From NCBI GenBank assembly GCA_964016885.1, contig OZ024742.1, forward strand, positions 99,696,001-99,760,000: a stretch of 64,000 nucleotides of DNA. The letters run 5' to 3'. The position numbers and the translations under genes are program-made. Source of the DNA: Eledone cirrhosa. Lineage: Eukaryota. The notes under the pieces were generated by a model. That model saw only the letters and a program-made list of their open reading frames with translations. It had not been told where the DNA came from and did no database searches. Below are positions 19,770 through 60,533 of the stretch, in pieces; the first letter of the stretch is position 1, and every line of letters begins with the position of its first letter.

Positions 19770-19920
19770 AACCAAATAAATATATATATTTAAAAAAAAA
19801 ATAAGACTTCAGTTGCATTTTCGATTTCATCTTTTTTCTTTATACTTTCACTCGTGTAGGACACCTCGATTATTTTTCATTTTGTAAAAAAAACCTCACT
19901 TTCTAATATATATATATAGT

Positions 19921-20652
19921 AATAATAATAAAATTGAAGACTAAAATCCAAAGAGGGCTCGATAAGGAAAATATATATCAAATATATAAGAACCGTGTGC
20001 GCTTCTTATATAAGTATTTATTTACTTATATACGTTGATATAATTATTTATTTATTTATTTGTACACAAGGATACACACACACACACATATTTATATGTG
20101 CGTGGTTTTGTATACCTATGGTAAGGTTATGCGTATGCTTGTGTATGTACGTATCTGTTTGCATGTATGTATTTATTTGTTTCTATTACTTCTGTATTGT
20201 ATTTATTTACTTTATTCTTAACTCTGTAGCGGAGATTAATTTTAGTCTACGACTTCTGCTATACCATTTACGTGGTTTTGTCTTTGCGTGCTATTGTTCT
20301 CCACGCTCCACATATGACTTATTATCTTCGTTTTTTCGTTCATTGCCAGAGAACGTCTCTATGCACCACCTAAGAGAACATTAGTCTACGACCTCTTTTA
20401 TACCATAAACGTGGTTCTGTCTTTGCGCGTAATTGTTTTTCACCGCTCCTATTAATGACGTATTATTCGTTTTTTCCCGTTCTTTGCCAGCGAACGTTAC
20501 CACGAACCAAAGTATTCCTGTCTTCCTCCGGTTGCAACGTTTTTTGAAATATCCAGTTCTGCGTTTACAGATTGACTTTGTTAGTTTCAGAAGATCCCGT
20601 TAAGGGTGAAAGCAGCGATTCTTTGCTTAAACTTTAATCTGTTATTTTAATA
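19921..20652. mobile_element. Non-coding element family C: inverted tail (19921-19996) + sense body with hammerhead-like motif
   Basis: Body matches the reverse complement of 53941-54420, while the tail matches 53860-53934 directly. Internal ~130-bp duplication at 20242-20500. Confidence 0.75.
20583..20633 (+). ncRNA. Hammerhead-like motif with A4 core (CAGAAGA)
   Basis: AGUUU-CAGAAGA-UCCC/GUUAA/GGGU-GAAA-GCA/GCGAUUCUU/UGC-UU-AAACU; all three stems form. Confidence 0.6.
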
Positions 20653-20653
20653 A

Positions 20654-20718
<65 letters not shown>

Positions 20719-37512: not shown

Positions 37513-37550
37513 CGAGAACAATTGTTTCACCTTAGCGGATCCTCAGCTCG
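37513..37550 (-). ncRNA. Minimal type I hammerhead motif
   Basis: CGAG-CUGAGGA-UCC/GCUAA/GGU-GAAA-CAAUUG-UU-CUCG; palindromic ACAAUUGU stem III. Confidence 0.65.
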
Positions 37551-42825: not shown

Positions 42826-44307
42826 AAGCATTACTAGAAATTACCATATACCGCTATCACCAACACTACCAGCATTACCAGAAATCACTATTTACGGCTA
42901 TTAGCAATACTACCAGCATTACCAGAAATTACCATATACCGCTATCACCAACACTACCAGCATTACCAGAAATCACTATTTACGGCTATTAGCAATACTA
43001 CCAGCATTACCAGAAATCACCATATACCGCTATTAGCAACACTACCAGCATTACCAGAAATCACCATATACCGCTATTAGCAACACTACCAGCATTACCA
43101 GAAATCACCATATACCGCTATTAGCAACACTACCAGCATTACCAGAAATCACCATATACCGCTATTAGCAACACTACCAGCATTACCAGAAATCACTATT
43201 TACGGCTATTAGCAATACTACCAGCATTACCAGAAATCACCATATACCGCTATTAGCAACACTACCAGCATTACCAGAAATCACTATTTACGGCTATTAG
43301 CAACACTACCAGCATTACCAGAAATCACCATATACCGCTATTAGCAACACTACCAGCATTACCAGAAATCACCATATACCGCTATTAGCAACACTACCAG
43401 CATTACCAGAAATCACTATTTACGGCTATTAGCAATACTACCAGCATTACCAGAAATCACCATATACCGCTATTAGCAACACTACCAGCATTACCAGAAA
43501 TCACTATTTACGGCTATTAGCAACACTACCAGCATTACCAGAAATCACCATATACCGCTATTAGCAACACTACCAGCATTACCAGAAATCACCATATACC
43601 GCTATTAGCAACACTACCAGCATTACCAGAAATCACTATTTACGGCTATTAGCAATACTACCAGCATTACCAGAAATCACCATATACCGCTATTAGCAAC
43701 ACTACCAGCATTACCAGAAATCACTATTTACGGCTATTAGCAACACTACCAGCATTACCAGAAATCACCATATACCGCTATTAGCAACACTACCAGCATT
43801 ACCAGAAATCACTATTTACGGCTATTAGCAACACTACCAGCATTACCAGAAATTACCATATACCGCTATCACCAACACTACCAGCATTACCAGAAATCAC
43901 TATTTACGGCTATTAGCAATACTACCAGCATTACCAGAAATCACCATATACCGCTATTAGCAACACTACCAGCATTACCAGAAATCACCATATACCGCTA
44001 TTAGCAACACTACCAGCATTACCAGAAATCACCATATACCGCTATTAGCAACACTACCAGCATTACCAGAAATCACCATATACCGCTATTAGCAACACTA
44101 CCAGCATTACCAGAAATCACCATATACCACTATTAGCAACACTACCAGCATTACAAGAAATCAACATTTACCGCTATTAGCAACACTACCAGCATTACCA
44201 GAAATCACCATATACCGCTATTAGCAACACTACCAGCATTACCAGAAATCACCATATACCGCTATTAGCAACACTACCAGCATTACCAGAAATCAACATT
44301 TACCGCT
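42826..44307. repeat. 44-bp minisatellite, ~33 copies
   Basis: Unit TACCAGCATTACCAGAAATCACCATATACCGCTATTAGCAACAC; phase recurs every 220 bp (42911, 43131, 43351). Confidence 0.95.
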
Positions 44308-44869
44308 AACAGTAATAATACCATTAACCAGAAAAAGACCACATAGTGCTATCACCAATACTACCACCAACTCCACATACTATTTCCACCAACAACAAAC
44401 AACCACTACTACTACTACTACTACTGCATCCTACTCCACCTATTAACAGCTAATAATACCACCTCAACTAACAACACATACCAAACACTACTACCATCTG
44501 CATCCCTAAAACATTGTCGAGATGTTTCTAATCATTTTTGCGGTAGGTTATGTTAAATTTCACTTTATTAAATTAAATCATAGTATCACTAATTCTCATA
44601 CGCCATCTTCTATTCCTAATAATCTCATATGACCTAGGCACTGTTTTAAACCATGCTTTCTGTGATTATTTGGAAAGTGAGGTCAGCAAATACAATTATA
44701 TCCCTTTTAGGATCCGACATCAAAGTCGTGGTGAGGTCATCAAGGTCAACGATAATACAATGAACTAAAAGTAAATAGCTATTGAAAGATTATACTACAT
44801 TTAGCCAAGATGTTCCCCCATCACACACACACTCAGAGATACACATACACACACCCACACACACATGTA

Positions 44870-53193: not shown

Positions 53194-53857
53194 AATATAT
53201 AGAAACACAGAGATACATGCGGACACATACATATACATGAATATATCGACATATATCTCTGAATTAGTGGTGCCAACCTCAACCGATGTTGCTCTATGAA
53301 TAACTGGGACAAAATAATCCGAATGGATTAGATTGATTCAGTATCAGAGCTATATAATACATTATGAAGAGAGAAGAAACATTACATATAATTAATAATA
53401 AGATATACCATACCCAAACTCTTCTTTACTCCTCGACTACGTAGTTTTGTGGCATATTATGCAAAAACACTACATCACAGAGATATAGAATTTTTGTGAG
53501 GTCTGCCGACTTATCAAGAGGATACCTCATTAAGAGTTTCAAAACACGTCCGTAGGACGCGAGATAGAATCCCGAAAGGCGGAGGGGGAGTCAATCACGT
53601 GATACAACGGTCAAGAAACAGAGCTAAGCCTCTTATAACCATGAAAAAAATACCAGGGAGGCCGAGGGGGTATTTATATCAAAGCCGTAGAAGAGGTGGC
53701 TAAGGTGGCGAGAAGTATGAGTAATGATAGCTTTCCACCAGTCACTACACTTCAAAGGTTACTCGACCAAAGGGAGTTACAAACATTATATAGAAACACA
53801 GAGATACATGCGGATACATACATATACATGAATAATCGACATATATATATATATAAT

Positions 53858-54420
53858 GATAATAATAAATTTGAAGACTAAAATCCAAAGAGGGCTCGAT
53901 AAGGAGAAATATATATCAGATATATAAGAACCGTAGAGCAGATATTTATTAAAATAACAGATTAAAGTTTAAGCAAAGAATCGCTGCTTTGACCTTTAAC
54001 GGGATCTTCTGAAACTAAAAATGTCAATCTGTGAACGCAAAAATAAATATTTCAAAAAACGTTGCAACCGAAGGAAGACAGGAAGACGATACTTTGATTC
54101 GTGGAAACGTTCCCTGGCAAAGAATGGGAAAAAAACGAAGATAATACGTCATTATTTGTACGGTGAAAACAATTATACGCAAAGACAAAACCACGTTTAT
54201 GGTATAAATGAAGTCGTAGACTAATATTCTATTAGGTGGTTCATGGAGACGTTCTGTGGTAATAAACGGAAAAAATGAAGATAATACGTCATTATGTGGA
54301 GCGTTGAGAACAATTAGACGCAAAGACAAAACCACGTAAATGGTATAACTGAAGTCGTAGACTAAAATTCTATTTAGGAAACCGAATGATTCTCGGCTTC
54401 AGAGTTAAGAATAAACTAAA
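53858..54420 (-). mobile_element. Family C element, un-rearranged (body continuous with tail)
   Basis: Body and tail collinear; CAGAAGA core at 53966-54016 with GAAA mutated to CAAA. Confidence 0.75.
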
Positions 54421-54550
54421 TTAAATACAGAGGTAATTGGAATTAAATATATACATACACGCATCCAAATACGTACATACACAAGCATACGAGAAAACAC
54501 TCGCCATGGGTATGCAAACACAAGCACGTACACAAAAAAACACGCACCCG

Positions 54551-58590: not shown

Positions 58591-59271
58591 ATATATATAT
58601 ATATACATATATATATAAAATATATACATACATACATACATAATATGCCTATTTACTACAGAATATATCCTTTCTCGTCACGTGAATATTATCAAACATA
58701 TAGTGATTACTGCAATGTACACTATGACTCATAGCTTCTGGCAATTAGTTACTATTCACTTCTACTTTACTCTTGCCAAGGTCTTAAACCGAAGCATATC
58801 GAAGGGAATTCATTAAAAGAGCCAGAAACTCGTGGACCCCGGACGCAAGATGCTTCCACTACTACGAGATCGATGATAACCTTATCGGAGAATGACCCAA
58901 AAAATTAGAAATGGATCACACAATGAATTAAAATATGATAGACAATCTTGAGAATGTCCAGTAAATATGTTTTAAAGATTGAAATATATAGTGGAATGGG
59001 GAATTACTTTCAATTGTTGTTCTGAATTTTTTTCTTCACTCGCAGTGTCAAATTCGGTAATCTACGTGTAAAAATGGTGACTGGGACTAGCACAAAATAT
59101 AATCGCAGTTAATGAGAACTATAGTCAGTGATGTATGCGACCTAATGTAACGGATTGTCCAAAGAGTTCACTGAAAGCCTTTACCAACATTTTAGTTTAA
59201 TTATAAACGTTAGTAAGAGTGGAGGTAATATATTTATATATATATATATATGTCCATTTGTTGCTTTTATA

Positions 59272-59458
59272 ATAATTGTTTCTACTTTTGTCACAAGGCC
59301 AGCAAATATCCCAGTACATTACTGGTACTTTATTTTATCGACCCCGTAAGGATGAAAGGCAAAGTTAACCTCGGCGGGATTTGAACTCAGACCGTAAGGG
59401 CCGTAACTTTGCTGCAAAGCATGGTGTCCGACTATCTGCCGATCCTGCCAATCCACCA
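59272..59458 (-). mobile_element. SINE family A
   Basis: Reverse complement of family A. Confidence 0.9.
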
Positions 59459-59712
59459 ATTATAATAATAATATTTATTTTAATAAATATATAAATATAT
59501 ATATATATACATATATAAAATAATATTTATTTTAATAAATATATAAATATATATATATAAATATATATATCAAATAATATTTATTTTAATAAATATATAT
59601 ATATAATAATAATAATAATATTTATTTAATTAAATATATATATATATATACATATATATGCACACACACACACACATATATACATTTATGATATATATAT
59701 ATATATATACAC

Positions 59713-59767: not shown

Positions 59768-59798
<31 letters not shown>

Positions 59799-59799
59799 T

Positions 59800-60190
59800 A
59801 GTAATAATAATAAAATAGAAGACTAAAATCCAAAGAGGGCTCGATAAGGATAAATATATATCAAATATATAAGAATCGTAGAGGGTGAAAGCAGCGATTC
59901 TTTGCTTAAACTTTAATCAGAAGATCCCGTTAAGGGTGAAAGCAGCGATTCTTTGCTTACATTTTAATCAGAAGATCCCGTTAAGGGTGAAAGCAGCGAT
60001 TCTTTGCTTAAACTTTAATCAGAAGATCCCGTTAAAGGTGAAAGCAGCGATTCTTTGCTTAAACTTTAATCAGAAGATCCCGTTAAGGGTGAAAGCAGCG
60101 ATTCTTAGCTTAAACTTTAATCAGAAGATCCCGTTAAGGGTGAAAGCAGCGATTCTTTGCTTAAACTTTAATCTGTTATTTTAATAAATA
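59800..60190. repeat. Family C inverted tail followed by a 51-bp tandem array of the hammerhead-like core (~5.7 units)
   Basis: CAGAAGA at 59918, 59969, 60020, 60071 and 60122; unit CAGAAGATCCCGTTAAGGGTGAAAGCAGCGATTCTTTGCTTAAACTTTAAT. Confidence 0.9.
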
Positions 60191-60224
60191 TATATATATA
60201 TCGAATTCATATAAAATCCTCATT

Positions 60225-60408
60225 GGCGGTGAATTGGTAGAATCGGCGGAGGGTTGGACACCATGCAATGCAGCATAGTTAGAGCCTCTGAGTTCAAATC
60301 CCACCGAGGTTAACTTTGCCTTTCATCCTTACGGGGTAGATAAGATAAAGTACCAGTAATGCACGGAGATAATTGGTGGCCTTGTGCCAAAAGTAGAAAC
60401 AATTATTA
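60225..60408 (+). mobile_element. SINE family A
   Basis: Family A head and body. Confidence 0.85.
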
Positions 60409-60459
60409 TAAAAGCAACAAATGGACACATATGTATATAAATATATTACCCCCCACTCT

Positions 60460-60533
<74 letters not shown>

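Follow-up and report, generated by a model that had tools for sequence, protein, structure and literature searches.

Here we report a 51-bp tandem array in the genome of Eledone cirrhosa, which on balance we regard as a locus-specific minisatellite formed from the last 51 bp of one insertion, probably by a microhomology-guided template switch coupled to integration, and predicted not to self-cleave. The array lies in a stretch of 64,000 nucleotides (assembly GCA_964016885.1, contig OZ024742.1, positions 99,696,001 to 99,760,000), which is called the window here and to which all positions refer; the genome searched comprised 3.0 Gb. The reading builds on features that are directly visible, namely the parent family with the motifs of its open reading frame (ORF), the two-armed layout of the insertion on (TA)n, the unique unit junction, the loss of stem I and substitutions private to single units.

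Structure of the array

The array was located by TRF at 59882-60173 (period 51, 5.7 copies, 96% matches, 0% indels, score 556). TRF and sequence comparison delimit five complete units on the plus strand, which span 59918..60173, begin at 59918, 59969, 60020, 60071 and 60122 and run from CAGAAGA to TTTAAT. They are preceded by a partial first unit (59882..59917, plus strand) without the core and most of stem II, which agrees with an earlier note on this DNA that had described five complete head-to-tail units and a partial one. Each complete unit contains the CAGAAGA core (U4A), the U-U, a 3-bp stem II, GAAA, stem III, UU and the 3' strand of stem I. At 9-11 nt to the 3' side of the predicted cut site comes the first unit junction (59917..59918, plus strand), which recurs every 51 bp; the TC microhomology that the note had seen there is real and measures 2 nt.

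As the same note had placed it, the array sits between an inverted tail and the usual end point of the family. The tail arm (59799..59883, minus strand) carries the long 3' end of the element in reverse complement and matches 19916-19996 at 96% and 53853-53938 at 92%; at locus L107 the tail is present in sense orientation. Beside the (TA)n flank, the outer end of the tail is present once more as a (TAA)n-rich copy (59769..59798, minus strand; TRF 59768-59817, period 3). The inverted tail passes into the sense arm at a 2-nt AG microhomology (59882..59883), a join that exact matches of a 22-mer place at 10 other loci as well. On the other side the array continues into the family's normal short 3' end (60174-60190) and then the (AT)n target (together 60174..60201, plus strand). 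This 3' end is identical (100% over 81 nt) to 20587-20667, and the same short end was found in most of 30 sampled family copies. Two ordinary copies lie in the window: the reference copy (19916..20667, plus strand), which is 5'-truncated with an inverted tail and an intact stem I, and a second copy with body and full tail (53853..54540, minus strand).

Four substitutions were found in the array (59960, 59962, 60036 and 60107), all private, with 0/4 variants common to several units. Divergence did not differ between the array (4/292) and the tail arm (3/72; p 0.14), as a common age of array and insertion would predict, four substitutions giving little power for dating. A 53-nt contig of short-read run X1 spans the unit junction with 0 differences at a depth of 34.7, with about 26 letters on each side, which is below the 31-letter bar. 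Since X1 is possibly the assembly's own source, this contig speaks against assembly error and is uninformative on other individuals. RAD-seq runs X21, X22 and X23 consist mostly of other family copies and carry no allele information for the array.

Two copies of another short repeat, putatively SINE-like and 82% alike, flank the array at 59214-59504 and 60184-60461, oppositely oriented so that each points away from it. Four tandem palindromic relics about 50 bp apart (59470, 59522, 59576 and 59617), with a motif found nowhere else in the window, look like the short end of the family joined to its own inverse. A 44-bp minisatellite occupies 42827-44308 (TRF, 33.7 copies, 93% matches).

The parent family

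Judged by its sequence, the array represents the 3' end of a single Hydra-clade Penelope-like insertion. The genome contains 30,649 exact matches to one 25-mer from the unit, corresponding to more than 30,000 copies of the family's 3' end. The copies are 5'-truncated, often with an inverted arm, have two alternative end points about 85 nt apart and lie in (TA)n. Among the first 30 of the 25-mer matches, three have more than 1.5 kb of upstream sequence in common, reaching an ORF, and the longer copies at 4/12 loci (L102, L103, L106 and L107) show the order motif, tail, ORF. The intact 709-aa ORF at locus L104 contains RWR (37), DKT (115), CxCx5C (564), IVY..YIG with one Cys (583), CDLC (662) and CKH, in addition to YxDD, a GIY-YIG without CCHH, and CxxC/CxH around a conserved E and N. 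Its type, a single ORF with a reverse transcriptase (RT) and, at its C terminus, GIY-YIG, is that of the Hydra clade, and its Atlas neighbours (0.96-0.99) include RVT_1, GIY-YIG and HTH_animal clusters; Pfam gave no match for a 489-aa piece of the ORF, nor did a PDB search with the ORF.

The family can be assigned to the Hydra clade by ORF motifs and layout rather than by placement in an RT tree. A single ORF, RWK-like, DKT and CxCx5C motifs, GIY-YIG without CCHH, and CxxC/CxH are features of that clade (PMC8557442). Among the 30 sampled ends and the longer copies, the layout of pseudo-LTR (pLTR) and ORF, the inverted truncated arm, the tail and the (TA)n target also follow the Hydra pattern; PMC8557442 further describes partial tandems and the 3' motif layout CUGANGA-U...U-GAAA, both of which the family has in common with the clade. 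The family differs in its tail of about 85 nt (30-40 nt in the Hydra clade; PMC8557442), reaches more than 30,000 3' ends, and has a CAGAAGA core, in contrast to the ctga cores in those Hydra rows of File S2 of that paper that were examined. In place of a canonical hammerhead in the pLTR, the family has the U4A form in an otherwise Hydra-like layout. Hydra-1_oBim has a different hammerhead and is therefore another family. Naiad and Neptune were ruled out as parent clades by domain order and linker motif, the CX2-5CxxC of Neptune being absent. Another Penelope element uses two internal start points in vitro and extends both strands (PMC11167929).

Within the window, this young and very abundant Hydra-clade element has its CAGAAGA motif at 20588 and 54011. 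About 105 nt upstream of the motif, locus L065, compared with L088, lacks precisely a 750-nt GT-AG intron that belongs to the 3' UTR/pLTR: it is a spliced copy beside intron-retaining copies. A second, different ORF fragment ending in GIY-YIG (L095:998-2023), 2.5 kb from a family copy, probably belongs to another Penelope clade. At L096, a tandem of about 490 bp with an inverted arm lies upstream of the element, beside a family copy.

The hammerhead-like motif

Hammerheads have been described in Penelope pLTRs (PMC4209133), and a type I hammerhead can be drawn from the ordinary copy, with 5 + 8 pairs in stem I, a 3-bp stem II and a 5-bp stem III; the constrained hammerhead fold of this copy lies 2.1 kcal/mol over the minimum. 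Rfam, both at the gathering threshold and at E 10, returned no hammerhead family for the array or the ordinary copy. Genome-wide, the same 29-mer occurs 18,743 times with CAGAAGA and 73 times with CTGAAGA (18,816 exact matches), and this predominance across the family indicates that U4A was already present in the source elements. One natural copy with CUGAAGA is found at L102. The hammerhead core named in the earlier note therefore needs qualifying: the unit does derive from a hammerhead-type motif, but its core is CAGAAGA, not CUGANGA, and Rfam is silent on it. Contigs of run X5, from another species, are also on the CAGAAGA core, with no listed differences.

The variant U4C shows reduced activity in vitro yet is viable in a viroid; in the hammerhead literature searched, no report of a U4A core was found. 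U4 takes part in a core contact, and a U-U at the base of stem II is tolerated (PMC3088659) and frequent in the Hydra rows of PMC8557442 File S2. Two subfamilies (25 vs 11 copies) differ at 41/149 upstream columns and 0/59 motif columns; 19/59 motif columns were fixed by the selection of copies and the first 46 upstream columns are poorly aligned, and the exclusion of both leaves about 14/103 upstream vs 0/40 motif columns, as counted from the printed line. The end of the element is conserved, be it as a ribozyme, as a protein-binding site or through exchange between subfamilies. Hammerhead-like cores with a canonical CUGANGA occur in the window at 37546(-), 37357(+), 49277(+), 46249(-), 25724(-), 53019(+), 24284(-) and 11417(-), the one at 37546(-) having the same U...U-GAAA layout.

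In the array, each complete unit has kept C3, G5, A6, G8, A9, GAAA, stem III and UH. Stems II and III are present with single changes in two units, GAAA and UU are in place, and the core is CAGAAGA in 5/5 units rather than CUGANGA. The core-proximal part of stem I is down to 1 contiguous pair in 5/5 units, compared with 5 in the ordinary copy, so the earlier observation that the junction substitutes for the 5' strand of stem I holds, and stem I does not close the junction of the units as it does in a type I hammerhead. In a dimer the arms would have the same sequences, so that it does not rescue stem I. The constrained hammerhead fold lies 9.2 and 11.1 kcal/mol over the minimum in two tested units, and by this modelling the array units are predicted to be inactive, with no self-cleavage.

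Uniqueness of the junction and sibling arrays

The earlier note had proposed a search for the unit junction at independent loci. Genome-wide there are none: a junction 20-mer has 4 exact matches in 3.0 Gb, 4/4 of them inside the array, whose fifth junction escapes an exact match through two substitutions. A junction unique to its locus is one half of what that note had named as evidence against its own proposal. A gapped pattern for periods of 29-59 gave 36 matches at 12 places. After omission of C473, a probable duplicate of the C9 junction, 11 places remain (the 51-bp array and 10 other loci), each with a different junction and with periods of 33, 35, 35, 38, 46, 48, 51, 53, 54, 55 and 56 bp; microhomologies of 0-3 nt are found at 7 junctions and extra letters at 4. 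Since each sibling has its own junction, such slips recur as separate accidents. For periods of 60-89, in contrast, one junction is common to 17/38 matches; both counts are lower bounds, as exact 14-mers were required. The 17 loci (L118-L143) form a non-coding subfamily in which several copies of the motif follow one another in steps of 171 and 68-71 bp and which has a tail of its own; this subfamily is a retrozyme-like derivative of the family that spread. It serves as a positive control: a junction within a source element recurs, whereas that of the 51-bp array does not.

At seven of the 11 places the unit, 33-54 bp long, is present at least three and up to about 21 times, the siblings including L098 (C27; 46 bp x 21), L099 (C3; 35 bp x 20) and L055 (C7; 38 bp x 11), as well as L035, L047 and L049. 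At L035, too, the 35-bp array opens on the inverted tail with an incomplete unit. In the 54-bp unit at L047 neither strand of the inner stem I is lost, and this unit is the better candidate for a ribozyme array.

Origin of the array

In the sequence of events that we favour, the enzyme would prime at the short end, copy through the hammerhead-like motif and slip back 51 nt at TC several times, either on RNA or on new cDNA during second-strand synthesis, two variants that are indistinguishable for this array. The sense arm would in the end have been linked, at AG inside a unit, with the inverted tail arm, and only point changes would have gathered in the array since. Of the two routes suggested in the earlier note, the template switch at TC is thus the likeliest start, at integration; for rolling-circle copying, no route to a circle was found. 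An important point is that a complete unit holds 14 nt that are absent from the locus outside the array and missing from the first unit. One-step DNA duplication of a finished insertion therefore cannot give the layout, which requires either a slip in the course of insertion or a duplication followed by a deletion.

The second route is the most serious alternative, though clearly a less probable one: replication slippage or unequal exchange at TC in the finished insertion, followed by a deletion at the hairpin centre that removed the 5' part of the first unit and recreated the AG join. Inverted repeats are prone to deletion. The neighbourhood duplicates readily, as seen from the four tandem short-end relics (18-20 nt each, 59470-59617) 300 bp upstream. 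Moreover, the repeats at L047, L129 and L134 contain the locus's own inverted-arm junction and those at L123, L126 and L139 contain target (TA)n, so these six arose after joining. Three long arrays share variants periodically (5/19, 9/25 and 2/8 distinct variants), a higher-order pattern showing that growth at the DNA level occurs in the family; together, the repeats formed after joining and these periodic variants count against integration-coupled slipping. The deletion route, however, needs two kinds of event, the second of which has to hit a join that is present at 10 other loci, and stepwise growth tends to give shared variants, of which the array has 0/4. The AG join itself is rare: its 22-mer has 11 exact matches in the genome (one at the array, 10 at other loci) among more than 30,000 ends. 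An earlier impression that AG was the family's commonest 5' join was biased by the query and was ruled out by these 11 matches.

A more far-reaching reading, which we consider unlikely, takes the seven short arrays as a series of minisatellite births, each written by the Penelope enzyme in a single run, with the U4A hammerhead, unchanged across the two subfamilies, still cutting in vivo, probably with the help of protein, and cut ends or tiny circles serving as templates. Of the tandem breaks, 8/11 lie no more than 4 nt from the predicted cut site (GCUU), where a uniform null would give 30% (p 0.005), and so do 6/9 simple ones (p 0.03), the 4-nt limit having been chosen after the data were seen and the 51-bp array not being among the near-site breaks. 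The predicted cut site falls inside the microhomology interval of three sibling arrays (35, 38 and 46 bp). A pile-up of 5' ends at that site, however, was not found among the exact matches (874 at the site vs 779 one base upstream); among sampled ends, true truncations numbered 12/30 at the site (one indel-like) and 15/30 one base upstream, or about 350 vs 390 ends. The lack of a pile-up counts against cutting in vivo. If such a series existed, the 51-bp array would be an off-site member of it.

Copying by an enzyme that rounds a 51-nt circular RNA about six times is more doubtful still. It would account for the identical period, the absence of indels, the purely private variants and the partial unit at the 5' end, and circular templates have been proposed for Penelope tandems (PMC4209133). 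However, the junction is offset from the predicted cut site by 9-11 nt in the downstream direction and so was not made by hammerhead cleavage and ligation, and since none of the three junction registers is flanked by GT-AG on either strand, a back-spliced origin of the circle was rejected. Furthermore, the last unit continues into the normal 3' end, which would be absent from a circle, and a reusable circle would be expected to leave its junction at other loci than the 51-bp array. Contig joints that go back 51 nt were discarded as evidence for a circle, as they result from the query design, in which a normal element reads second half, then first. Contigs of run X4, the kind of which is not on record, include none listed across the junction, an absence that proves nothing.

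The nascent ribozyme satellite proposed in the earlier note, taken here as a functional non-LTR retrozyme whose transcripts are cut into 51-nt monomers and spread, is very improbable. The retained C3, G5, A6, G8, A9, GAAA, stem III and UH of each complete unit would fit such a role, as would the U-U at the base of stem II, which is normal for Hydra-clade hammerheads (PMC8557442) and tolerated (PMC3088659). Against it stand the reduction of stem I to 1 pair in 5/5 units and also in the dimer, the U4A core, the prediction that the units do not fold as hammerheads, and the restriction of the junction to one locus without any spread; the retrozyme units described in PMC7229834, moreover, measure 150-450 bp. 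An assembly artefact, which the repeat-rich and AT-rich surroundings and the lack of a listed contig across the whole array might suggest, is scarcely credible given the private substitutions of the units and the exact crossing of the junction by the X1 contig.

Comparison with known repeats

Like animal retrozymes and the satellites of newts, schistosomes and crickets, the array consists of head-to-tail units derived from a type I hammerhead of a Penelope pseudo-LTR. In those satellites, however, the units are longer, have propagated widely and contain complete ribozymes, whereas the array has a 51-bp unit without a complete hammerhead at one locus. Non-LTR retrozymes form units of 150-450 bp with complete hammerheads and linear and circular RNA (PMC7229834), and a 2026 preprint, which derives retrozymes from Penelope pLTRs, requires two consecutive complete motifs (bioRxiv 10.64898/2026.07.22.740005; shorter units are possibly listed in its tables). 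In the array there is no complete motif, and the same unit does not occur at many loci.

In transposon-derived minisatellites, a short segment of a mobile element undergoes duplication at a microhomology, followed by expansion at a single locus. The array has both the microhomology duplication and the one-locus expansion in common with this class, which is touched on in the discussion of bioRxiv 10.64898/2026.07.22.740005; it differs in that the first duplication likely coincides with integration and in that the segment is a ribozyme relic. The array is thus likely an ordinary by-product, a transposon-derived minisatellite, and not a new ribozyme satellite. In the open literature on Penelope minisatellites, template-switch tandems and octopus hammerheads, no paper on such short arrays of Penelope ends was found.

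Significance

Taken alone, the 51-bp array matters little, since with more than 30,000 ends some seven arrays of this kind are to be expected as accidents. Taken together, the arrays show Penelope-like insertions seeding minisatellites, and they separate dead-end repeats, with a unique junction and a lost stem I, from those that get into a source element and then spread, such as the repeats with the 17-locus junction. This distinction bears on the origin of animal retrozymes. Catalytic mutants had no effect on insertion in vitro (PMC11167929), and that study and PMC8557442 leave open whether Penelope elements need hammerhead cutting; the U4A core found throughout this family is a natural test of that need.
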